NCBI GenBank assembly: GCA_963749655.1
Contig: CAVVOB010000012.1
Coordinates: forward strand, 32,001-96,000
Source of the DNA: Nitrospirota bacterium
Lineage (GTDB): Bacteria > Nitrospirota > UBA9217
Direction: 5' to 3'
Length of the DNA stretch: 64,000 nucleotides
Shown piece by piece: positions 1 through 12,428 of the stretch (position 1 is the first letter of the stretch; every line of letters starts with the position of its first letter). The translations under genes and the position numbers were made by a program. The notes beneath the pieces are model-generated. The model was not told where the DNA came from. It made no database searches and was given only the letters and a program-made list of their open reading frames with translations.

Positions 1-113
1 TCATCGAACAGGACGATCAGGAAGCCCCGCACCCTCGGTTGGTCGCCGTCGATCGTGGCGACGAAGCAGACGGGGTTTTCCCGAACAAACCGCATGACCT
101 CCTCTTTTGACAT
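1..113 (-). CDS. Pyridoxamine 5'-phosphate oxidase family protein, N-terminus (runs off window)
   Basis: Manual translation from ATG 113: MSKEEVMRFVRENPVCFVATIDGDQPRVRGF, with the family-typical ATxDGxQPxVR motif and an AAGGAG RBS upstream. Not in the ORF track. Confidence 0.75.
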   Translation of the reverse strand, partial: MSKEEVMRFVRENPVCFVATIDGDQPRVRGFLIVLFD

Positions 114-633
114 GGCAGTCTCCTTTCGTTCCCGGCTGTCCCACTATAAAGAATCACGATGAGGGACGCCTTCAAAATCCGATCATTTTTTTTAAGAATT
201 CCATTATTCTTCAGGAGCTGAAGAAGTATCCCGTGACAAGTGCAGTCCCCGCGTTCCCCGCGTCTCCGCGTGAGGCGCCTTCTTCTGTTAAGGAACGTGC
301 TGAAATAGCGGAGGGGACATCTTGGTTTTTGTATCACGCGGAGGCGCGGAGGAAGGCATTCTTAGGGAGGCCGAAGTTATCATGGTAAGTTTATTGTCCA
401 CATGGCTTAGCTGCTGAACGAAAGGAAGTGATCTCATGGGAAACGGAACAGGCGGCAGCGAGCATTGCAGAAGCAAAAGGGGAAGAATGCGAAAGACGGG
501 GAAAACAGTCATGAAAGATACATCATTCTTGCGGCAGGGGACAGGCCGGTGGTGTCCCTCCCCGTTTTTTTGTGTCAGGGAGGGGCTCCGGTCCCCTGCG
601 GTTGCGTCTCGTCAAGCAACAGGCGCCTGCGAT

Positions 634-1020
634 TTATTTCAGCCCGTCCACGCTCCATTTGACGCCGCCCCGGCAGGCAATGAGGAGGAAAACGAAACAG
701 TAGAGAACGGCCAGTTCGCCTTGGTTCACTGCCGGAAAGAACTTGGGTCCCAGCTGGAACTTCCAGTGGAACTGGATATACGCCACTGCCATCTCGCCGC
801 TGCAGAGGAAGGCCGCCCAGCGGGTCTTCAATCCCAGCATGACCGCGAGCCCCGCGACGAGCTCGATGAGCCCGCCGAACCAGAGTTGGGACCCCAGGGG
901 CGGCTGGAAGTCGGAGAGTATTCCCAGGATCTTCTGGGCGCCGTGGAACGCGAACATGAATCCGGTGATGATTCGCATCAATGCATAGGCGTGGTCGGAG
1001 TACTTTGCAAGCATTTTCAT
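634..1020 (-). CDS. DoxX family membrane protein
   Basis: RIITGFMFAFHGAQK...GLIELVAGLAVMLGLKTRWAAF...NQGELA motifs, four TM segments. Confidence 0.9.
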   Translation of the reverse strand: MKMLAKYSDHAYALMRIITGFMFAFHGAQKILGILSDFQPPLGSQLWFGGLIELVAGLAVMLGLKTRWAAFLCSGEMAVAYIQFHWKFQLGPKFFPAVNQGELAVLYCFVFLLIACRGGVKWSVDGLK

Positions 1021-1198
1021 GAGGGCATCCTCCTTAACTGTGCGGTGATGGCATCTTGATAGAATTATACCCCCGGGAAAAGGAGGCGGGGGATTTGAGG
1101 GGAAATATTCTCTGGAAGACCGGCATGGGTCAGACGGAGGGCGCCTTCCTATCGGGGGGCGATCTTCCGGTGAATCGTATCAATCCCGCCGGGGCCTG

Positions 1199-2611
1199 CT
1201 AGGAAGGGGTATCAGGTCCATCTGGACGGGATAGCAGCGGGAGGGGAATATTTACCGACACACAGGTGCCGGCATCGGAGGTGAACATGACGGTGCCGCC
1301 GATTTCGGCGGCGCGGACCTTCATATTCGATACGCCGCGGCCCTTGCCGGAATGCGCAGCATGGTCGTAGCCGAGCCCGTTGTCCCGAATGGTAAGCGAG
1401 ATTCGTTCCTTGTTCACCTGAAATCCCACGGTGACATTTTTTGCTTTCGAATGCTTGATGACGTTGGTGAGGGCCTCCCGGTAGATCCGGAACAGGTGCA
1501 GGCACAGAAGGCTTCCCGGCCTCGTAACGCTTTCATCAATTTCCGCTTTTAAATCGAATGCGATCGCGTGGTGCTCGACGGTCTTTGTGCCCCGGTTGCG
1601 CAGCTCGGCGATGAGCGTGTGCCAGTTCAGATCGTTCCGGTCGAGACTGTACATAAGGCTCCTGATCTCTCCCATCCCTTCGCGCGACAGCTCCAGAATC
1701 GTATTCAGCGATTTGCTGATATCCTCCTGCGAAGATGCTTTCAGGGCGACTTCGGTGAGCATGCATATGTTCGTCGTTATGCCGCCGATGCCGTCGTGAA
1801 TGTCCATGAGAATCTTTTGAAACGCCTGCTGGGCCGCCCGGCGCTCATCAAGCATCGTATTAAATGCTGTTGCAAGCTTTCCTACTTCGTCCGTTCCCGT
1901 TACGGGCACCTGGGTGACTATGCCTCCCTGGCCCATGACCCTCACATTCTCAGTCAGCGCCTCCAGAGGATGCGTGATTTTTTTCACCCCCAGATATACG
2001 ACAAAGGCGCTCGCGCAGATGAAAATAAAGGCGATGATCGCATTTCGTTTCAGCATGCACAGGATCTCCCGGTCCAGGGCTTCTTTGCCCAAAACGATCC
2101 TTACATGCCCGATCACGCGGGTATTCGTGCCGGGCTCCTGATCGCCGAAATAGAGCACCTTTTCTTCATTCGGATAAATCGTTAGAACGACGGGCTTCAT
2201 GAACTCCAGCGTACGATCGGTAGCCTGTGTCGGCGTGGCCAGTTCCGTTTTTATGACCTCATCAGGCGTCCCGGGTTCCCGATTAAAATCTGTATTCGCC
2301 GACGATTTGCTGATCACGTATAACTGCTTCATGTCGGCGTTGTATATTTCCACGAGAACGACGTCCGGTTCAGCGGCTACACCGGCGGCAACGTCCTTCA
2401 AAAGATCCCTGTTTTCCGCAAAAACGCCCGTCCGAGAACTGTATGCAAGGAGGTTCGTCAGCAGCTCGCCCTTGTTCGTGAGCTCCTTTCGCACCCGTCG
2501 CTCCTCCGAGAAAACGGCGAAAAGCGTATAGACCGTGAGCATGGTCACAATAATGAGAATGGATGCGCTGAGCAGCCTGAATACGAGGCCTTTTTCAGGG
2601 AATAATTTCAT
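1199..2611 (-). CDS. HAMP-domain sensor histidine kinase (HisKA_3/NarX-UhpB-like)
   Basis: Two TM segments flanking a periplasmic domain, HAMP (PLEALT...DEVGKLATAFNTM), H-box DIHDGIG, N-box EALTNVIKHS, G-boxes DNGLG and GRGVSNM. Start taken at MKLFPEK. Confidence 0.9.
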   Translation of the reverse strand: MKLFPEKGLVFRLLSASILIIVTMLTVYTLFAVFSEERRVRKELTNKGELLTNLLAYSSRTGVFAENRDLLKDVAAGVAAEPDVVLVEIYNADMKQLYVISKSSANTDFNREPGTPDEVIKTELATPTQATDRTLEFMKPVVLTIYPNEEKVLYFGDQEPGTNTRVIGHVRIVLGKEALDREILCMLKRNAIIAFIFICASAFVVYLGVKKITHPLEALTENVRVMGQGGIVTQVPVTGTDEVGKLATAFNTMLDERRAAQQAFQKILMDIHDGIGGITTNICMLTEVALKASSQEDISKSLNTILELSREGMGEIRSLMYSLDRNDLNWHTLIAELRNRGTKTVEHHAIAFDLKAEIDESVTRPGSLLCLHLFRIYREALTNVIKHSKAKNVTVGFQVNKERISLTIRDNGLGYDHAAHSGKGRGVSNMKVRAAEIGGTVMFTSDAGTCVSVNIPLPLLSRPDGPDTPS

Positions 2612-2615
2612 TTCG

Positions 2616-3566
2616 CTACTCCACTTTTTCCGCATTTCGAATTGCCTCTTCGTCGAGCCGTAATCCGATTTTTGCAGCAACCTTCGTGTTCACGATGAGG
2701 TGGGGGGTTCTTGCATAAGCGCGAGAGGGAGCTCTTTCGCCCCCGGTCAGGTGCCGTACCTGCTCTCCGGCCTGGACTCCCATATCGTAGGGGTCAATCG
2801 TCAATGCGGCCACCGCCCCTCGCTCGACGTATTTTTTTGCGAAGGAGAAGACCGGCAGCTTGTTCTGAAAGGAAAAGAGCATCAGGTACTCGATTGTTTC
2901 GGAGTTGACGAGCGTCGAATCCGGCAGCATCCACAGAATATCAACCTTGTCCCGCAGTTCATTCAAAGCCGCAGGCACCTGCTGCGGATTGCCGACCGGC
3001 TTGATGATCAGGGTCATCCCTCTGTTCCGGGCGACGGCTGACGCCTCCTCGACGAAGGGGCCCGTATGTTCAGGGTCAAAGAGCACCCCGATCCTTTTGG
3101 CCGAGGGAAAAAGCGGGGCCATGGCTGCAAAGTACGTTGCCGGCGCAATGTCCATGCTCACGCCCGATACGTTGTCCGCAGAAAGAACCGCCGTTTCGGA
3201 CGGGATCACCATGGTGTAGATTATCGGAACGTCCTGGATAGTTCGCGCTTTTTTGAACGCCTTGGTGCCGACGGCGAAGATCGCGCTGGGGCGCTCGGCT
3301 TCGACGATGGCCAGCACGTCGTTGTCCGAAAGCCCCAGCTCTTTCATCGTGCAGCCGCAGGCGGTCTTGAATCCCTGAATTGCGTCACGGTAGGGTTTGA
3401 TATCGGTGTCTTTTATGACGATGACTTCATGAGCTGCTGCGGGGAGGGGCAGACCGAACAGGCACAGCATGAGCGCAGCCCCGACAACGACGGCGCTCAG
3501 TTTGCTGCCGTGAATAATGCAGGGCCGGTGAGTGGCAGATGGACGGAGGTTATGACTTGTCCGCAT
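2616..3566 (-). CDS. ABC-type substrate-binding protein (ABC_sub_bind-like) with no permease or ATPase nearby
   Basis: Signal peptide ending AAA-HE; IFAVG, GVS, KRIGVLFDP, WMLPD, YVERGA, GVQAG and LIVNTKVAAKIGL motifs. Start overlaps the radical SAM stop. Confidence 0.85.
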   Translation of the reverse strand: MRTSHNLRPSATHRPCIIHGSKLSAVVVGAALMLCLFGLPLPAAAHEVIVIKDTDIKPYRDAIQGFKTACGCTMKELGLSDNDVLAIVEAERPSAIFAVGTKAFKKARTIQDVPIIYTMVIPSETAVLSADNVSGVSMDIAPATYFAAMAPLFPSAKRIGVLFDPEHTGPFVEEASAVARNRGMTLIIKPVGNPQQVPAALNELRDKVDILWMLPDSTLVNSETIEYLMLFSFQNKLPVFSFAKKYVERGAVAALTIDPYDMGVQAGEQVRHLTGGERAPSRAYARTPHLIVNTKVAAKIGLRLDEEAIRNAEKVE

Positions 3567-4857
3567 TATCGTATTTGACGTCTTGAAGTACGAGCGATTG
3601 CAGCGCTTTGTCGAAATAGTGCTTTCTGCAATCGATACCCTGCATGCTTCCGTCATGGATAAGTTTCATGTACTTGCATCCCCCGAAACAGAGCGGCAGA
3701 TAGCAGCAGGAAAGGCATTTCTCGTTTTTCCAGTCGTCAAGCGCATGGGATCGCCGGTAGTCGGCCAACCCGTTCCTGAGATCGCCTACGCTGCAATGTT
3801 CCCTTCCGATCATGCCGGGGCACTTGTACAGCGTTCCGTCGAAGTTCACTACAATGTTTTCGTGAATTGCCATCATGCAAATCGCCGGACCGACCTTCCG
3901 CGTGCGAAATCCGCGCTTCAAAATTTCTTCTCTCAGAAAGGTCCCGGCGTCGATCAGCCATGGCTCTTCCGACGACATGCAGCCGTCATGAAAATCGGGA
4001 GGGGAGAATTCTCCCCGTTCGTTGATGACCGGGCCGAAACTCACGAATGAAATTTTTTCGGGGGTGAGGCCCGTGTCGAGGAAATGATCGAGCAGCCGGG
4101 GGAAGACCCGGTAGTGCTCCCGGGTATAATTGCCACCGACCTGCACATCGATCAGACCGCAGACGTCGCGGAGATTGCCGACAATAGTGTCGAACGACCC
4201 CGTGCCGGATTTGAAGGGCCTGAACAGGTCATGTACCTCGCGGGGACCGTCCAGAGTCACGCCTGCTCCGGCAAGCCCGAGAGGCTTCAGTTTTTCCACG
4301 ATGCGCCGCGTAAGCAGTGTCCCGTTCGTGATCAGGGAAAATGTGAATTCCATGTTCCGTTCTTCCGCAAGGCCCCTCATTTCCTCGGCAACACGAACGA
4401 TCATGTCAGTGCTCAAGAGCGGTTCGCCGCCGTAGAACGTGATATTGATTTCGTCCTTGTCTTCCAAGTCCCTGGACCGGACAAAAGCGGTGAATTGCTT
4501 TGCTGTCTCGACGGACAGATAGTGTTTGCCTTTTCTCGTGCCTTCGAAGCAGTATTTACATCCGAGGTTGCAGTCGAGATTGAGCACGACGAGGGCGCAG
4601 AACGCGTTGTTGCCGCTGTTCAGCTCATCGAGGTATGTGCGCATCTGCCGCTCTTCGGTCTGGGGGCTCCGCACGAGGAACCCCTCGGAGCTGAGAGTCC
4701 TGCGTTCTCCGGCCGGCAAACGGCCTTTCTCGATATCATCGAGAACCTCAGGCGAAACGCTGACCACGGACGTCGTCCGTGTTGAAAAGAGCGATACAAG
4801 ACCTGGTTCTTCAGGATCATGAAAGCGTATGCAGTATCTGGATAAGTGCATGGTCAT
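3550..4857 (-). CDS. Radical SAM/SPASM peptide maturase (geopeptide maturase-like) with N-terminal RRE-like domain
   Basis: CNLGCKYC radical SAM motif, FYGGEPLL, TNGTLL, TLDG; SPASM cysteines ICMMA...YKCPG...CLSCCYLPLCFGGC...IDC; N-terminal ~60 aa ending L-x-x-x-GFLV as in RRE/PqqD folds. Confidence 0.9.
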   Translation of the reverse strand: MTMHLSRYCIRFHDPEEPGLVSLFSTRTTSVVSVSPEVLDDIEKGRLPAGERRTLSSEGFLVRSPQTEERQMRTYLDELNSGNNAFCALVVLNLDCNLGCKYCFEGTRKGKHYLSVETAKQFTAFVRSRDLEDKDEINITFYGGEPLLSTDMIVRVAEEMRGLAEERNMEFTFSLITNGTLLTRRIVEKLKPLGLAGAGVTLDGPREVHDLFRPFKSGTGSFDTIVGNLRDVCGLIDVQVGGNYTREHYRVFPRLLDHFLDTGLTPEKISFVSFGPVINERGEFSPPDFHDGCMSSEEPWLIDAGTFLREEILKRGFRTRKVGPAICMMAIHENIVVNFDGTLYKCPGMIGREHCSVGDLRNGLADYRRSHALDDWKNEKCLSCCYLPLCFGGCKYMKLIHDGSMQGIDCRKHYFDKALQSLVLQDVKYDNADKS

Positions 4858-4863
4858 CTCAAT

Positions 4864-4898
4864 GAAAAAGAAAGAACAGGGGAGAGCGAGCTCTCCCC
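4864..4898 (-). terminator. Intrinsic terminator/attenuator between precursor and maturase
   Basis: Perfect 8-bp stem GGGGAGAG/CTCTCCCC (4879-4898) with a 4-nt loop, followed on the minus strand by TGTTCTTTCTTTTT. Confidence 0.75.
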
Positions 4899-4911
4899 GA
4901 ATGAGTTGTTG

Positions 4912-5100
4912 CTAGCGACGGTACGTGATCATTGTCCCCCAGGGACAGCATAATGGCATTGAGGCTTTGGCCTTTGCCGACTTCTTCTTGGCTGTTTTCT
5001 TTTTTGCTGCCTTCTTCTTGGTTGCCTTTTTCTTTGTTGCTTTCTTCTTTGCCGACTTCTTCTTTGTTGCCTTCTTCTTGACCTTTACGCGTGCCGCCAT
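4912..5100 (-). CDS. Putative RiPP precursor: Lys-rich (KKKxx)7 leader plus Cys-Cys core, 62 aa
   Basis: Strong RBS GAGGAGGTG before ATG 5100; MAARVKV-KKKAT-KKKSA-KKKAT-KKKAT-KKKAA-KKKTA-KKKSA-KAKAS-MPLCCPWGTMITYRR; lies directly upstream of the rSAM/SPASM gene. Confidence 0.75.
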   Translation of the reverse strand: MAARVKVKKKATKKKSAKKKATKKKATKKKAAKKKTAKKKSAKAKASMPLCCPWGTMITYRR

Positions 5101-5147
5101 CTTTTTCACCTCCTCATTGGATTGACTTCCCCGACATATGTCATCCC

Positions 5148-7022
5148 CTAAAACTTGCAACGAATTCCGGCTTCGTACCATCGTTCAGGGTTCTTATATA
5201 CATCTAGTACATACTGGGAGCCGTTAAAAATATTGTGGGCAGCCGCAAAGACCTCCAGGGACGAATATTTGCGAACAGACATCTTTTTTGTCATGGTGAG
5301 ATCGAATATAAAGGAATCGTATTTCCCGTTGTAGGAAGGATCCGCGTTCCAATCGACATAGCGTCCCTGGAGCAGGGCCTTGAGCGATCGCGTGTCGTCG
5401 TAGCGGAGAGCAAGATCATAGACCTGTGTCGGTATGTTGTGCAATCTCTGGCCCGTAGCGGCGTCAACTGCATCGACGTACTCCGCGCCCGCAGAGAGGG
5501 AGGTATTGTATACGGGAACGGTCTTCATGGCGAACTCAATCCCCTGGCGGCGCTGGCTTCCGCCATTTACGAGCAATATTGTCGTCGCCGAGCTTGTATC
5601 TACGGTGATGGCGTCATCGATGTCGTTCCTAAATGCGGAAAGTTTCAGCCAGAGGGACTTCACTGCAGTCGTTTCCGCTCCCACTTGGTACGCTATGACC
5701 GTCTCCATTTTGAGATCGGGATTAGCGGTGAAGTAAATGCCGTCCCCGAAGGTTTCTGCAAGCGTGGGGATGCTGAATCCCCGTGCGGCTGAAGCCCTCA
5801 GAATTGTGCTGTTCGCAATGCCGTAGGTGAGCCCCAGGCTCGGACTTGCCATATCTCCATTCGTATTGGTGCTGTCATACCGGATGCCGGGGGTGACTGA
5901 AAGCTTGTTGAACGTAAGGGTATCATTGGCATAGAAGGCAGATTTCTTAATTCCCTGCTCCCCGTTCGCCAAATTGTTCCATTTCAGCCTCTTGTCATCA
6001 TAATCGGCCCCCGCGACGATCGTCTGAGAGGGACTTTTCCAGGTCAGTTTCGCGCTTGCGCCGTATCCCTCATCAACAGCTCTGCTTTCCTGGAGAAATG
6101 CGCCCGTACTGAGCTGATGGTTCGTACTTATAAAGTCCTGACGAAGAGTTCGGAGAGAAACGTTCAGGTCCAGGTTCTTGCGGAGAGTGGAATTCAAGGC
6201 CATGGTTGCATGCAGGATTTCCAGGGAGTTCTCATAGGACAGATCAAAGAGTGGATCAAGTCCCGTATTGCGGGTTGTATTCATATAGCCGACCGCAGCA
6301 AGAATATCGGTATGGTCCGAAAGATCATAGGAGAATTTTGCATAGGTATTGTTCTCCCTGACATCGGAGTAGAGCGTCAGACCGTCCGACTGCAGGTTCC
6401 CGGCGGAGAGATAGTAACCGAACCCGTTCTGCTTGCCCCGCGCCTCCGCACGCGAGTCGATTGTGTTCCTTGTTCCGTAGGATGCGGAAACCATACCGCC
6501 GCTGTTGTCTTTCGTTCCGGACTTGGTGATGATGTTGATTACGCCCCCGAGGGCCGAGCCCCAGGCCGAGGATGCCGGACCTTTGATGATCTCGATTTTT
6601 TCGATGTTCTGCACGGGGAGAATCCCGAGGTCGGCGATATTGTTGGCGACGTTGTTCAGGATGATTCCATCAATGATCACGGTCACGTGCTTGGTGTCCG
6701 ATCCTTGTATATATGCTTGGGCTATCTGTCCGGGGCCCCCGGTCATCCATACGACGACGCCGGGGACCGTATTCAGCACCTCGGCAACGGTATGGGCGTT
6801 CATGAGCTCGATGTCCGCGGCCGTGACCACGGAAATGTTCTCGGCGGTCCGGGAAATCGGTTTGGAGCTCCGCGTTGCGGACTGCACAACAAGCTCTTCT
6901 TCTTTGAAGTACATCAGGAGAAAGTTTTTTTCTTCGTCGGGCTGCGCCAGGGCGGGGGAACAGAAGGTCAACAGATAGGCGATAGCGGCTAGAACGCTGA
7001 CGGTCTTGGCAAGTCTTTTCAT
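5148..7022 (-). CDS. TonB-dependent receptor
   Basis: Signal peptide, TonB-box-like ELVVQSATR, plug motifs (EVLNTVPGV, IEKIEIIKGPASSAWGSALGGVINIITK), NPDLKME, C-terminal Phe. Confidence 0.93.
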   Translation of the reverse strand: MKRLAKTVSVLAAIAYLLTFCSPALAQPDEEKNFLLMYFKEEELVVQSATRSSKPISRTAENISVVTAADIELMNAHTVAEVLNTVPGVVVWMTGGPGQIAQAYIQGSDTKHVTVIIDGIILNNVANNIADLGILPVQNIEKIEIIKGPASSAWGSALGGVINIITKSGTKDNSGGMVSASYGTRNTIDSRAEARGKQNGFGYYLSAGNLQSDGLTLYSDVRENNTYAKFSYDLSDHTDILAAVGYMNTTRNTGLDPLFDLSYENSLEILHATMALNSTLRKNLDLNVSLRTLRQDFISTNHQLSTGAFLQESRAVDEGYGASAKLTWKSPSQTIVAGADYDDKRLKWNNLANGEQGIKKSAFYANDTLTFNKLSVTPGIRYDSTNTNGDMASPSLGLTYGIANSTILRASAARGFSIPTLAETFGDGIYFTANPDLKMETVIAYQVGAETTAVKSLWLKLSAFRNDIDDAITVDTSSATTILLVNGGSQRRQGIEFAMKTVPVYNTSLSAGAEYVDAVDAATGQRLHNIPTQVYDLALRYDDTRSLKALLQGRYVDWNADPSYNGKYDSFIFDLTMTKKMSVRKYSSLEVFAAAHNIFNGSQYVLDVYKNPERWYEAGIRCKF

Positions 7023-7186
7023 ACAGGCCCCACTTGATGGAAAAAGATATGGTGATGCGAACTAAGGAATCAGGCTTCGGAGCAAGTCCGCCGCCAGGGT
7101 TATCGTTTCGAAGGTTATCAGGCAACAATGCCGCGTGAAGGTATACGGAAGAGGGAACGGCGCATCGGCGCCTCTCCACGGGGACG

Positions 7187-7215
7187 AGAGTACACTAAAT
7201 ATGAAAAAATTGCAA
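7187..7215 (-). promoter_or_regulatory. Sigma70-type promoter of the TonB/RiPP operon
   Basis: Minus strand TTGCAA-17 nt-TACTCT. Confidence 0.55.
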
Positions 7216-7333
7216 GAATCTCTTGCGGATACAGAATTTCCCGGCGGTCCGTTTCAGCGTGATCACGGTACGACGCGGGCGCGGAGAGGATATATCTCTT
7301 CCGTCTGAAGAATAGAACGTGTCGAGGGGTTTT

Positions 7334-8053
7334 CTATTGCGGTATATCGATCCTGTCTTTGTTCCTGAAGCTCCTGACCAGGATTTTGCCGCGCGACCAG
7401 GTGTAGATATGCACCCGAGCCTTGCTCCTGGCCGTTACGCAGGTTGCGCCGAAGTCGTCGTAGTGAATGGCCGCGAAGTTGTCGCAGGCTATGCCGACCA
7501 TTCTTTCCCGCGCGATCATTGCCTTGAACGAGGCATGACGTTTTTCCGAATCCAGATGGGGGCAGTACAGCCCCGGGCGGAGACCGAGCGACCGGACTTT
7601 TATGTAGGACCAGTTTTTTCTGCCGGAAAAGGAGCGTGAATCGGAATGGCCCCACTCGTGCCAGCAGATAGCGCCCGCACTCAGGCCGGCAAGCACCGTT
7701 CCTTCATGCGCGGCCCTGATCAGCATCCTGTCGACGCCGAAACGGCGCCACATCTTCATCATACGAAGCGTATTGCCGCCGCCTACATAGATAAGATCAG
7801 CTGCCTTGATCTTCCTTGCCGCAGCGGCGCGGTCCTCGGGCCTCCGGTAAAGAAGGAGATGGTCAGTTCTGCATCCGAGCAGATCCCCGTAGATATGGTC
7901 AAAAGCCCTGCGGTAATCTTCGTCATCATTGTTCGCCGTGGGGATGAAGAGCGCCCGCGGAGACTTCTTGCCCGTGAGCTTTACGATGTATGTGTCGATC
8001 GGGAGGGTCTGCTTCTTCTTCAGGCTGCCGCCGCCGATGGCAATGATGTTCAT
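7334..8053 (-). CDS. Peptidase S51 (peptidase E-like)
   Basis: IIAIGGG, FIPTA, IYVGGGNT, nucleophile elbow GLSAGA, CPH. Confidence 0.88.
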   Translation of the reverse strand: MNIIAIGGGSLKKKQTLPIDTYIVKLTGKKSPRALFIPTANNDDEDYRRAFDHIYGDLLGCRTDHLLLYRRPEDRAAAARKIKAADLIYVGGGNTLRMMKMWRRFGVDRMLIRAAHEGTVLAGLSAGAICWHEWGHSDSRSFSGRKNWSYIKVRSLGLRPGLYCPHLDSEKRHASFKAMIARERMVGIACDNFAAIHYDDFGATCVTARSKARVHIYTWSRGKILVRSFRNKDRIDIPQ

Positions 8054-8646
8054 GTCCTTCTCCTTGTTCTTTCCTGCTGCACTTCCCGATATCTGAAGCA
8101 GTCGACGAGGTGATCGTTGACCATCCCCGCCGCCTGCATGAAGGCATAACAGATGGTCGAGCCGACGAACTTGAAACCCCGCTTCTTCAGGTCCTTGCTC
8201 ATGCTGTCTGATTCCGGCGATGTTGCCGGGATCTGGGTGAGGCGATTGAACCGGTGCTGTATGGTCTTATTGCCGACAAATTGCCAAATGTATGCATCAA
8301 AGGATCCGAACTCCTTCCGGATCTCGATAAACTTTTGTGCGTTCGTGATCGCTGATTCGATCTTCAGTCTGTTGCGTATGATGCCGTCGTTTTTCAAAAG
8401 ACGCTGCACATCTTTTTCATCGTAGCGCGCAATAACGGTCGGATCGAATCCGTTAAAGGCTTTTCGGTAGTTCTCGCGTTTCCGGAGCACGGTGGACCAC
8501 GAGAGCCCTGCCTGCGCCCCGTCCAGCACGATGAATTCGAAGAGCTTACGGTCGTCGTGGAGCGGTACGCCCCATTCCGTGTCATGGTAGGCGATCATGA
8601 GAGGATCGTCGGAAGGCCAGGAACATCGTCTTATTTTCTTAGACAT
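8050..8646 (-). CDS. tag: DNA-3-methyladenine glycosylase I
   Basis: RCSW...YHDTEWG, QAGLSW, GIIRNRLKI, GFKFVGSTICYAFMQAAGMVNDH...C. Confidence 0.95.
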   Translation of the reverse strand: MSKKIRRCSWPSDDPLMIAYHDTEWGVPLHDDRKLFEFIVLDGAQAGLSWSTVLRKRENYRKAFNGFDPTVIARYDEKDVQRLLKNDGIIRNRLKIESAITNAQKFIEIRKEFGSFDAYIWQFVGNKTIQHRFNRLTQIPATSPESDSMSKDLKKRGFKFVGSTICYAFMQAAGMVNDHLVDCFRYREVQQERTRRRT

Positions 8647-8846
8647 GGAGGTCTCCAAAACGTCTCTGGCATATGAGAGGCTTTTGAAGAGAAGATACTA
8701 TACCGTGAGAAACAAGGCAAGTGTTCGATGCGATTTTTTAGGTATGCGGCTGTAGCTGCGGGCCAGGAGGGCACGAGCCGTTATCCAGCAGTCGTAAACG
8801 ATTGAAGAGTTCGAAGCAGCGCGGAGTCGGGTATGCGTGCTGTGAA

Positions 8847-9978
8847 TCAGGTTCCGCCGGTCAACATCCTTTCAATGATATCCCAGCACACCCTTCCGCC
8901 CTCGGCTCCGCCGACATTGGTCACGACAACGAGCCCCTTTTTTCGTGCAGGATTGATGGCCATATAAACCAGGAAATTGCCGGCAGAGCCGGCGTGCAGG
9001 TGTAGAGCTTCTCCATTGACGTTCTGAACCCCCCACCCGGCGGCATAGGCTGATTCGAAGGGCCCGCCGGTCATGACCCGTATCTCGTGGAGCTGCACGA
9101 TCATTTGAGCGGTGATTCCCGAGTCATCCTGCCCCATCAAACCGCGAAGATGGAGCTGAACGAACCGTGCATAATCCCGGAGGGTCAAGCTGACGATCCC
9201 GGCCGGAGCGAGCACCTCCGGGATGGACTGATCGATGACCCGTGCAGGCGCGGCAGCTCCCCAATTCGAGGTGTTGCCCACCGGCTGATCAGAACCGAAG
9301 TCCTTGGGAAAGCCAAAATATGCCTTGATGCCCAGGGGGCCGAAGAGCAGTTTGTTCATGGCCTCCTGATAGGAAAGGCCTGTGCGGCGTTCGATGACCG
9401 CTCCCAACGCAGCATAGCCGTTGTTCGAATACAGGTAACGGCCTCTGCGGATCCAGGACGAACCTTGGAGCACCTCGACCAAGATACTGCGTTCTGGACC
9501 CGTGGTACATGCGCAGATCGTCCCACGTGGCAGGGTCTCCGCCCGGCGGAAGTCCTGCCTGATGTGAAGCAAGGTCGCCGAGGGTTACGTCACGGTAGGC
9601 AGAGTCGGCTGTTGCCGCGAACTCGGGGAAGATCTCCAGAAGCCGTGTGTCCCAGGAGAGCGAACCGTCCTGCATGAGCTTCTCCAGTGCCGTAGCCGTC
9701 ATGGCCTTGGTGCAGGAACCGAGCTGATAGAGTGAATCTGCCGTCACCGGACGTTCGCTGTCGAGCCGCGCTTTTCCGACCGGACCATAGGTGACGATAT
9801 CGTCTACGGTGATCTCGGCGACCCCCAGCGACGGCACAAAGTACCGCTCGCGAACGCCCTCCAATATCGGTGCGGACCATGTCCGGCGTCAGCGTCCGAA
9901 ACGGGCCGGGACATCCGCTGACATGAAGGTCAGCGCTCCAATCGCAATCATCTGATAACAGCGTCTCAATGTATTCAT
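8847..9978 (-). CDS. Serine hydrolase (beta-lactamase/S12 family), probable lipoprotein, broken by several indels
   Basis: Fragments in different frames carry SxxK (GSCTKA), LASHQAGL, YSN and HAG; MNTLRR...LTFM/SGC signal peptide spans a frameshift. Confidence 0.75.
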
Positions 9979-9987
9979 TATTCACCC

Positions 9988-10940
9988 TCAGAAAGAAAGA
10001 CTTGCATTTAATCCCATGACTGCGCCGTCGTCAATGGCAAGCTTGTTGTCCTTTGACCCGATCTTTCGGTTGAACTCCCATCCGAGCGAGGCGTTCAGGA
10101 CACGACGGTCCGATGGTCAATATAATAGAGATACGTCCAGTCAAGGCCCGCGCGCTGAGCAGAGTAGGCGACGCTTTTCACATTCGGCCCTTCCAGCCGG
10201 TACGCCCAGCTATTGCCGGCATAGGACAGGCGGAGGATGTTCTGCTCAGTGACTTTATAGGAAATTCCGCCGCCCGTCGACATCGACCAGTCAGGATGGG
10301 GGGAGAAAGCAAAATTGAGCAAGGGGTATCCCACCGTGATTGTCCATCGGTCATGGGTAGTGTTGACGTACTCTACGACGGGGTATATCTGGTCTTCCAG
10401 GGTATCCGTCTGGACATAGGCATACCCGAAGGCCCATGCTATGCCGGGTTCGCGGGAGACTGCGGCCAGGCCGACAAGGTCGAAGGTATCGCGAACGGTT
10501 ATCGACGGGCTGTCGGTCCAGCTTCGATTGCATCGGATTGACTGGCTGAGCGACCAGTCGCCGGAGGTGATGTGCTTGTATACGAGCGCGGCCCCTGCAT
10601 TTTCCAGCCGGTCAGGCATGGCAAAACCGTCAGGCAGAGCGAGTTTTCGATCGAGCTCCCGCCTGCCGTACTGAATGCCGGCAAGCACCTGGTTGCGTTC
10701 GTTGTTCCATATATTGGACGCCGCAAACAGATAGTCAAAGGAAATGCCGGTGTTTTGCCCGTCACTCGTATTCGCGCTGTCGTCTCGTGAACCGCCCGCG
10801 CCGATCATATGAACATCCCTCATAAACGAGGGGTTCGTCGCTGCATCAAAGAAAACATCCGCCCCGGCCGCGCCTGCTTTTGCCATGAGCGCTCCTGAGC
10901 TGAGCAATACTATTGCGATACTACGGATGTACTTGTTCAC
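9988..10940 (-). CDS. Putative outer-membrane beta-barrel protein (frameshift near 10100)
   Basis: Signal peptide and alternating beta-strand pattern; an alternative frame continues VLNASLGWEFNRK...GLNASLSF* ending in the OMP-type terminal Phe. Confidence 0.6.
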
Positions 10941-11199
10941 GGATGTGTTCTCCTCTTTCTGAATATCTGTGATCGCCGATTCCCGGGAGACGGTCCGTTG
11001 GCGGGAATATACTGAATAAACCGGGTCTTGCCATGCGATCTGAATCTGTAATGATTCCGAGTATACCGGATCGGACGGTATACGTCGTCCCGCCCGATAG
11101 GAAGGGAAAACTTTTTTCGTTAGATTTACAACACGTTATGCAAAAAGGGATAAAAACACAATCAGTTGACCGGATATCCGGTTACGTTTCTCAGACCTC

Positions 11200-12428
11200 C
11201 TAAATGGTCTGTTCCGGGCCCTTCTGATTCTTCCTGTACTGAGAAGGAGTCATGCCCGTATTTTTCTTGAAAGCCGAATAAAAAGCATTTTTGGAATTGA
11301 ATCCCGCGTCCATTGCGATCCCGAGGATGGAGAATCGGCCGGATTCGGGCGAGCAAAGCGCTTTTTGGGTTTCCTGGACCCGGTATTCATTGACGAAGTC
11401 AAAAAAACTCTTGCCCAGTTTCCCGTTGATCACCTGAGAAAGATGATGGGAAGATACGTCGAGCATATTCGAGAGCATCGGGAGGGTAAGTTCCATTTCG
11501 AGATAGGGTTTCTTCTTTTTCATAAGGTCGGTGAGTCTGGAGAGGATCTCCCCGGCCTGCTGATCGCTGAGCGAGGATTTTGCATATTTTCCAGTTTCTT
11601 CCGGTTCCCCAGGCCGCATGTGATGTTTCGTCCGGTTTGTCCCGTCGCTGTCCCGTTGTGTCGCCTCATCGGGGGGAAAGAGTTCGGAGGCGGTAAATAT
11701 CTTCGTCTGGCTGATGCCTTTATATCCCATGACGTAAATGATGCCGACAACCGCAAGGTTGTAAATAAAAGCGGCCTGAAGAAATATTCCGTAAATCGGC
11801 AACAGAATGGTGACCAGTAAAAAGATTCCGAGCAGGAACAGGAAAAGAAGGAGAAGGTTCCTGAGCCAGGAAAGATTGATGCGCTCGATGGAGGAATAAT
11901 TCTGTTTGATGGTGCGGGAATGCACTGAGAGCAGACGGAGAGACAGGATGAGGTATCCGGCTATCTGTACGGTGAAGACGAGGACCATGGGATTTGCGAG
12001 GCCGGAGTAATTCTTGAACAAGCTTTGGAGGAGCCACTGGTTCGCTTTAACGTCGGCGTTTAAAAGAAAAAGCGGCGCCAGGGAGGCGGCGAAAATGACG
12101 GCCGGCAGGAAGTGCAATAACACTCTCCATGCTTCGATCCGCTGCCAGGCTTCGTCAAGGACTTGATATAAAAATATGTGAGCGGCCCGTATGCGGCCAT
12201 TAGCGGCCATTGGAGACCGATCAGGGAAGGATACCGGAGATAGTAGTAGGTTACGGACATGAACCCGTCAACGAGCCCGAGGGAGAATACAAGAAGCAGC
12301 AAGGCAAGAAACCAGTTTGCCACGCGGTTCCCGGTCTTCATCCGAGCAAGCAGCAGGGCGAAGAACAGCCCCTGTGCCGCGCCGGCAAGGAGCAGGACGG
12401 AAATCAAGCTGATCGAAGGTGTCTTCAC
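11200..12428 (-). CDS. Membrane-anchored AraC family regulator (multi-TM N-terminus; frameshift near 12140)
   Basis: TM segments with YGPLTYFY and LLHFLP; C-terminal AraC HTH HHLSQVIN...FFDFVNEYRV...GFNSKNAFYSAFKK. Confidence 0.85.

Follow-up and report, generated by a model that had tools for sequence, protein, structure and literature searches.

Geopeptides are a widespread family of ribosomally synthesized and post-translationally modified peptides (RiPPs) without known structure or function, and the system to which they belong, a TIGR04280 maturase of the radical S-adenosylmethionine (rSAM) type together with a TIGR04229 precursor, was defined computationally. CteB, a thioether-forming rSAM/SPASM enzyme, matures SCIFF peptides, whose six cysteines have defined acceptor residues. 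The SPASM enzyme anSME acts on a folded protein, in which it converts Cys or Ser to formylglycine, and to our knowledge it has neither an N-terminal peptide-binding domain nor a dedicated small precursor gene. Here we describe a geopeptide locus in a 64,000-nucleotide stretch of the genome of a Nitrospirota bacterium (contig CAVVOB010000012.1, positions 32,001 to 96,000 of the forward strand; hereafter the window, in whose own numbering positions are given), where a TIGR04280 maturase gene is preceded by a 62-residue open reading frame (ORF) with a long lysine repeat. We consider it likely that this peptide is a genuine geopeptide-class precursor read by the adjacent maturase and that its repeat is an in-frame spacer insertion.

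The locus is not a new class of system. As in described geopeptide loci, its maturase passes the curated cut-off, the precursor gene lies directly upstream and encodes a hydrophobic leader motif and a C-terminal Cys-Cys pair, and a TonB receptor gene is adjacent, an arrangement shared with Geotalea toluenoxydans and further loci. Position, motif, and core mark the peptide as a geopeptide precursor, but it departs from the family in spacing. It has 62 residues versus 27 to 40 in the short forms, goes undetected by TIGR04229, carries a net leader charge of +25 versus -10 to +6, and separates its leader motif from Cys-Cys by 39 residues versus 8 to 11. The maturase model shares with CteB the layout of N-terminal peptide-binding domain, rSAM barrel, and SPASM domain, and in the complex model a leader strand docks on the N-terminal domain as it does in the CteB class; however, identity between the two enzymes is just 20 to 22%, and the window's family conserves only a Cys-Cys pair. 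The modeled peptide and maturase would work like a CteB/SCIFF-type pair, a likeness that carries no claim of membership in that family. The second-best structural match, anSME (PDB 4K36-4K39; E value about 1e-17), is likewise a SPASM enzyme acting on a Cys side chain. The peptide also resembles the histone-H1-like tails of NF038053 in composition and in its pentamer-like Lys/Ala/Thr periodicity, but it falls far under the cut-off of that model, has a RiPP leader motif and a Cys-Cys core, and is always paired with a maturase. We found nothing on geopeptides, TIGR04280/TIGR04229, or Lys-rich RiPP leaders in open-access full text (supplementary tables were outside the scope of this search), and as far as that literature shows, the Lys-repeat variant is unreported and the geopeptide system uncharacterized.

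By all tests run, the enzyme is a member of TIGR04280. The original prediction, made from the letters of the window alone, had likened it to geopeptide maturases, and it scores 582.7 bits against the NCBIfam model (cut-off, 400; E value, 4.6e-175) over model positions 1 to 427 of 428; the next-best family reaches 154 bits, far under its own cut-off. The CX3CX2C motif is formed by C96, C100, and C103, and the SPASM motifs comprise C327...G341...C346 and C381/C384/C390/C394; the rSAM and SPASM cysteine motifs are invariant across 47 aligned homologs. Pfam recognizes Radical_SAM and Fer4_12 only, and the earlier label of the protein as a fusion of a RiPP recognition element (RRE), rSAM, and SPASM is backed by structure prediction, Pfam itself showing no RRE domain. 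In an AlphaFold2 (AF2) model built from the 47-sequence alignment (predicted local distance difference test [pLDDT], 93.8; predicted template modeling score [pTM], 0.91), three strands and three helices at residues 9 to 73 precede the rSAM barrel and the SPASM domain. CteB (5WGG/5WHY) is the closest solved relative both by profile (2.5e-35) and by fold in Foldseek (5WHY/5WGG; E value, 1.9e-22; TMq, 0.66 to 0.69; full length), and the further structural relatives are anSME, ChlB, TigE, and SuiB.

Translation of window positions 5100..4912 on the minus strand gives MAARVKVKKKATKKKSAKKKATKKKATKKKAAKKKTAKKKSAKAKASMPLCCPWGTMITYRR, a peptide of 62 residues with 24 Lys, 12 Ala, 6 Thr, and no Asp or Glu. 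Its seven KKKxx units begin at residues 8, 13, 18, 23, 28, 33, and 38, an exact five-residue period, and the codons of Cys51-Cys52 occupy 4945..4950. The earlier description of the ORF, with its length, strong ribosome-binding site, lysine count, seven KKKxx units, and lack of acidic residues, is thereby confirmed throughout. The peptide gene lies upstream of the maturase gene, with 54 nucleotides from its stop to the maturase start. Starting instead from an ATG farther upstream gives 89 residues, but this longer frame overlaps the receptor gene's end and no ribosome-binding site precedes it; the 62-residue start was preferred.

Table 1. Features of the geopeptide locus, with positions in window numbering
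Feature	Position	Strand	Remarks
Precursor peptide gene (predicted)	4912..5100	minus	62 codons plus stop; based on translation, composition, and homologous small Cys-Cys ORFs
Shine-Dalgarno-like site GAGGAGGTG	5107..5115	minus	6 nucleotides ahead of the peptide ATG
Putative retained leader recognition motif, R-V-K-V-K-K-K-A-T	5065..5091	minus	codons 4-12; in alignment, the counterpart of the short geopeptides' N-terminal motif; complex model
Lys pentamer repeat tract	4963..5079	minus	codons 8-46; seven KKKxx units and one degenerate unit, KAKAS
Predicted core region	4915..4962	minus	codons 47-62; Cys-Cys invariant in two alignments; complex-model contacts
Terminator-like GC-rich hairpin plus T-rich tail	4879..4898	minus	between peptide stop and maturase start; pattern scan
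rSAM/SPASM maturase with RRE-like N-terminal domain, 435 residues	3550..4857	minus	TIGR04280, Pfam, Cys motifs, AF2
TonB-dependent receptor, 624 residues	5148..7022	minus	directly upstream of the peptide gene; Pfam Plug, TonB_dep_Rec_b-barrel
PF04392 periplasmic substrate-binding protein	2616..3656	minus	Pfam ABC_sub_bind, 5.7e-26
Membrane sensor histidine kinase	1199..2680	minus	Pfam sCache_4, HAMP, HisKA_3, HATPase_c

TIGR04280 exceeds its cut-off in 10 of 41 close-relative genomes, in 43 of 401 sampled genomes of the window's phylum (about 1 in 10), and in 26 of 401 sampled genomes of a second phylum, that of Geotalea toluenoxydans, from which 31 loci were fetched. Among the matches listed, the nearest named records are metagenome-assembled genomes (MAGs) of Nitrospirota/Nitrospirae (57, 55, 50, and 46% identity), followed by MAGs of Deltaproteobacteria/Desulfuromonadales and by Geotalea toluenoxydans. 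Upstream sequence was scanned by script at 49 loci with usable sequence and a maturase of at least 40% identity; left out were L014, L017, L044, and L059, where upstream sequence is absent, and L015 and L058, whose maturases, at 31% identity, fall short of the cut-off. At 46 of these 49 loci a Shine-Dalgarno-like site precedes a small ORF encoding a Cys-Cys pair 9 to 15 residues from its end, a range that the position of C51-C52 within the 62 residues fits, and a purine-rich site like GAGGAGGTG stands ahead of the peptide ORF in all 46 loci with a picked ORF. Judged by this recurrence at the same position, the window's peptide ORF is not a chance ORF. The second phylum has a Cys-Cys peptide at 26 of its 31 loci, and none of these 26 carries a Lys-repeat tract. 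The earlier view that the Cys-Cys core is retained is upheld in both phyla, and the combination of Lys repeat and Cys-Cys, which the original prediction had proposed to look for ahead of homologous maturases, occurs in seven loci.

The peptide itself keeps company with the maturase. Its profile matches 26 places in the 41 related genomes, 8 of them over the full profile and 18 over the repeat columns only. All 8 full-profile matches lie directly upstream of a TIGR04280 match, and the 18 repeat-only matches each contain a stop; the concern that the peptide might commonly occur without the rSAM gene finds no support in these genomes, where no full-length match lies away from a maturase. Against 5.8 billion proteins, the peptide-alignment profile returned five matches, all with the architecture of the window's peptide and all carrying either no name or the label "hypothetical protein"; in four of them, further residues precede the start chosen here (another upstream start or a contig edge). 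Lys-repeat geopeptide precursors are missed by the curated precursor model and by gene callers.

Most of the precursors found (34 of 46) are short, with 27 to 40 residues. Near the N terminus, 32 of these 34 carry the motif [IVL]-x-[IVL]-x-[KDNSE]-x-[GA], a definition derived in this analysis from the 32 peptides themselves and not from curators, and Cys-Cys follows 8 to 11 residues on, with a spacing of exactly 10 in 23 of the 32. Short leaders in the window's taxonomic family are of the M-K-x-R-I-V-V-L-K-K-G type (net charge, +1 to +6), and those in other families are acidic, of the I-V-V-L-D-x-G type (down to -10). The original prediction described geopeptide precursors as short with acidic leaders, a picture that holds for Geotalea toluenoxydans (L066) and most second-phylum loci but not for the window's family, where the leaders are basic.

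An alignment of 12 peptides, both Lys-repeat and short, places the window's peptide in this scheme. M1, R4, K9, K10, C51, and C52 are invariant, and the repeat stands as an extra stretch of about 24 to 30 residues between the N-terminal motif and Cys-Cys, opposite a gap of about 29 columns in the short relatives. The Lys-repeat peptides keep the N-terminal motif as M-x-x-R-[IV]-x-V-x-K-K, and in the window V-K-V-K-K-K-A at residues 5 to 11 has the form of the family leader motif but stands 39 residues, not 8 to 11, from Cys-Cys. Past the cysteines, conservation is limited to one small residue at the second or third position. The original prediction had the leader replaced by a Lys/Ala repeat. 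In the alignment the N-terminal motif is retained and the repeat is an insertion between motif and core, and on this evidence the leader is expanded, not replaced. Tandem Repeats Finder reports a 15-bp period at 4972-5079 (7.2 copies, 76% matches), and the DNA repeats have diverged, with Lys encoded by 19 AAG and 5 AAA codons.

Prediction of the complex suggests how the parts of the peptide would lie on the maturase. The input comprised the maturase (47-row alignment), three 4Fe-4S clusters, S-adenosylmethionine, and the peptide as partner (12-row alignment). The complex scores 0.80 (median of three runs) versus 0.10 for the best of three controls, and the mark used is reached by 58 of 80 solved complexes versus 2 of 110 mismatched pairs. 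At least 77% of contacts are shared between runs, with a partner pLDDT of 52 or higher. In the model, peptide residues 4-12, 14, and 47-59 are those with confident contacts. Residues 4-12 lie against maturase residues 28-38 and 51-59, the latter in a helix, and the lowest-error contacts join peptide 4-9 with enzyme 30-35, the third strand of the N-terminal domain. Residues 47-59 touch the barrel and SPASM domain at 89, 104, 140, 176, 199-201, and 239-243 and further at 273-278, 320-328, 346-348, and 389-397. The repeat, residues 15-46, makes no confident contact in the model. From this model we infer docking in the canonical leader-on-RRE mode with the repeat looped out. The TIGR04280 maturase would recognize the short leader motif (about residues 4-12), docked as a strand on its RRE-like N-terminal domain, and the C-terminal Cys-Cys core (about 47-59) would enter the rSAM/SPASM active site. 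The seven-unit Lys repeat would be an in-frame tandem-repeat insertion that extends the spacing from about 10 to 39 residues and loops out of the complex. The family offers a natural experiment on a RiPP rule, namely how far a core may stand from its docking motif, with distances of 8 to 11 residues in 32 peptides versus 31 to 39 in one clade.

Several observations weigh against this account of the peptide as a precursor of the adjacent maturase. The Cys-Cys ORF was not found upstream in 3 of the 49 loci (L032, L051, L053). The curated geopeptide precursor model TIGR04229 (22 positions; cut-off, 30 bits) gives no match to the window's peptide at E values up to 10; the model is narrow, because ordinary short peptides are missed as well (of six from the same phylum, five were missed and the sixth reached 12.3 bits), and precursor status was therefore approached through the maturase loci. 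No acceptor residue next to Cys-Cys is conserved among the aligned peptides, and the conserved cassette holds no protease or exporter gene. The score of the complex may partly reflect memory of solved leader-RRE complexes (CteB, SuiB, ChlB), and our own alignments and the riding ligands lie outside the calibration of the tool.

The chemistry may be sketched by comparison with better-known enzymes. The maturase would act by radical chemistry on one cysteine or on both, and a thioether cross-link as in CteB would be the likeliest outcome. A Cys-derived thioether is our best guess for the product and is offered only as an analogy, because the residue next to Cys-Cys that could act as acceptor is not conserved; Cys side-chain oxidation, as in anSME, would be the alternative.

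Lys pentamers occur at seven loci, all in the window's family (the window, L006, L007, L018, L027, L029, and L033), with 5 to 7 repeat units and 31 to 39 residues between motif and Cys-Cys, the window having the longest spacing, 39. The seven peptides range from 51 to 62 residues, and every length difference among them preserves the reading frame. Maximum-likelihood analysis of 47 maturases, without the fragments L018 and L019, unites the six full-length enzymes from the Lys-repeat loci in a single clade (support, 99/95), whose sister carries a short peptide; the repeat insertion is restricted to this one maturase clade. A second clade, in another family (L045, L047, L048, L052, and L057; support, 100/97), has Lys/Ala/Thr-rich peptides of 35 to 88 residues in which the tract comes before a V-x-K-G-like motif, itself still about 10 residues from Cys-Cys as is usual; a locus from a named Nitrospirae MAG (L062) holds a further precursor of this kind. 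An approximately unbiased (AU) test against a single clade of all eleven enzymes, a group named after the tree had been seen, gave a log-likelihood difference of 42.9 and p 0.0105. The simplest reading is that Lys-rich tracts originated twice independently, because they are inserted at different points and belong to separate clades. The polycationic leaders thus appear to be convergent.

Precursor number and cassette number also vary. Two loci from other families of the phylum have two tandem, near-identical precursor genes ahead of one maturase (L022, 2626-2745 and 2819-2938; L028, 2717-2827 and 2892-2990). At L024 the precursor lies at 2000-2095 and the maturase starts at 2998; the roughly 900 nucleotides between them hold no obvious same-strand gene and may be an insertion. 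Four genomes have two geopeptide cassettes each: G013 (L007 and L016), G012 (L018 and L010), G369 (L052 and L041), and G005 (L006 and L017). In the first three, a Lys-rich precursor system stands alongside a short one, and in G005 the second locus, L017, is without upstream sequence. These coexisting cassettes raise the question of whether maturases tell the two leaders apart.

Two readings of the Lys tract seem to us about equally possible, and neither is more than a tentative choice. The repeat could be a functional polycationic module that is kept on the product and binds nucleic acid, polyphosphate, or the anionic envelope; the mature molecule would then be, with the same tentativeness, a polycation with a modified Cys-Cys cap and not a small cleaved core. 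Lys-rich tracts were gained in two separate clades, after the motif in the window's and before it in the other, and a single clade is rejected (p-AU 0.0105), although the group tested was chosen after the tree was seen. The tract stays Lys-rich and in frame across maturases only 55 to 60% identical to the window's, and it is old, because its DNA repeats have diverged to 76% matches and it is kept across enzymes so far apart. The absence of a protease or exporter gene from the conserved cassette also fits an uncleaved product. On the other side, unit number varies (5 to 7), as expected of a tolerated linker, and the system does not need such a tract, which is found in 0 of the 26 second-phylum peptides.

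The repeat could equally, and with as much doubt, be the outcome of neutral replication slippage in a length-tolerant linker whose function is limited to joining motif and core. This would agree with the 15-bp tandem period, with copy numbers that differ among close relatives (51 versus 56 residues beside nearly identical maturases), and with the lack of confident contacts of the tract in the complex model. However, the spacing of 8 to 11 residues in 32 short relatives argues that linker length is normally constrained, the repeats are diverged and not recent, and two clades independently reached the same Lys/Ala/Thr composition.

A bolder version of the polycation reading strikes us as rather unlikely. 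In it, two lineages would independently have made of their leaders polylysine-like tracts of 25 to 65 residues because the finished molecule needs the tract in order to work. The cassette, with genes for a TonB receptor, a periplasmic binding protein, and a sensor kinase but none for a protease or exporter, prompts the further idea that, at similarly low credence, an uncleaved polycation with an rSAM-modified Cys-Cys cap would stick to the outer membrane, nucleic acid, or polyphosphate and be re-imported and sensed. If this were true, the locus would encode a RiPP whose "leader" is an effector or targeting domain.

That the ORF encodes an independent small histone-H1-like nucleoid protein, beside the rSAM gene by chance, is very improbable. 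Its composition resembles that of Lys/Ala-rich DNA-binding tails, there are sub-threshold matches to the histone H1-like model (12.7 to 14.5 bits versus a cut-off of 80), and a tiny Lys-rich ORF without a Cys-Cys tail occurs elsewhere in the genome; but all full-length relatives have a TIGR04280 gene immediately downstream, and the N-terminal motif and Cys-Cys tail are those of ordinary short geopeptides. Against NF038053 itself the 62-residue form is not listed and the 89-residue reading reaches 12.7 bits, and with the cut-off so widely missed and every full-length relative tied to a maturase, a histone-like protein was rejected. The least probable of the alternatives, hardly worth entertaining, is that the ORF is untranslated and its AAG-rich tract non-coding repeat DNA: the sequence is of low complexity and the profile search of 5.8 billion proteins did not recover the window's own peptide, but the ribosome-binding site is strong, the frame is kept through all length changes in seven loci, conservation extends to the Cys-Cys tail, and behind the stop codon stands a terminator-like hairpin.

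A tiny ORF of similar composition was seen elsewhere in the genome (L151, 531-617; G000 contig C13), where it accounts for the repeat-only kind of profile match. It has 20 to 28 residues, nearly pure Lys/Ala/Thr pentamers, and a TAG stop, with neither a Cys tail nor an rSAM neighbor, and it is conserved in the genus, most same-genus genomes having one such match each. An origin of the precursor's repeat from this ORF was considered and set aside: similarity in blastn is only that of shared K/A/T codons, and we draw no inference from it.

The precursor and maturase genes belong to a cassette of five minus-strand genes arranged head to tail, in the order TonB receptor, peptide, rSAM maturase, PF04392 binding protein, and histidine kinase. 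Within the window's phylum, 47 of 55 locus rows include a receptor homolog, 44 a homolog of the PF04392 binding protein, and 35 one of the sensor kinase, and the second phylum has the receptor at 28 of 31 loci; several of the neighbor-gene misses among these 55 rows fall at contig ends. The window's own genome has no second copy of the receptor/binding protein/kinase module. In same-genus genomes the PF04392 binding protein tracks the maturase, bar one genome, and four of the five genomes without a maturase hold just 22 to 29% identical binding proteins. G003 has a 46% identical PF04392 orthologue (L142, contig C3, 1498-2430), and the place of the rSAM and peptide genes is taken there by AT-rich sequence with short ORFs only, as if the cassette had been partly lost. 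In the window, the true start of the PF04392 protein is probably the Met at about 3569, ahead of a signal-peptide-like hydrophobic stretch.

The best named matches of the TonB receptor are vitamin B12 receptor models, at 168 bits versus a cut-off of 600, and its plug region alone matches several NCBIfam receptor families named for Cys/Sec motifs. A cobalamin element ahead of this BtuB-like receptor was considered and rejected, the Rfam scan of window positions 1-12000 having returned no riboswitch or other known RNA at E values up to 1. The neighborhood suggests outer-membrane uptake and periplasmic sensing of the product or of something that it binds or carries. This compact, conserved five-gene cassette ties a putatively modified peptide to outer-membrane uptake and two-component sensing, and together with the spacing variant and the polycationic leaders it provides clear starting points from which to trace the product and what it does.

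The hairpin behind the peptide gene folds at -18.2 kcal/mol (z, -2.25), and 37 of 46 loci have an equivalent hairpin with a T tract at this place. RiPP operons commonly use partial termination to produce precursor transcript in excess, and by partial termination this terminator-like hairpin would probably yield more peptide transcript than enzyme transcript. Its stem (an GAGGGAGAGC-type arm and complement) is conserved across many loci of the window's family, beyond what a generic terminator needs, and could be a regulatory or processing element.

The genes that flank the cassette, at 7334-8053, 8050-8658, and 634-1020 (all on the minus strand), which by eye we take to encode, in that order, a protein of the peptidase E type, DNA-3-methyladenine glycosylase I, and a DoxX-like membrane protein, seemingly lie outside it.

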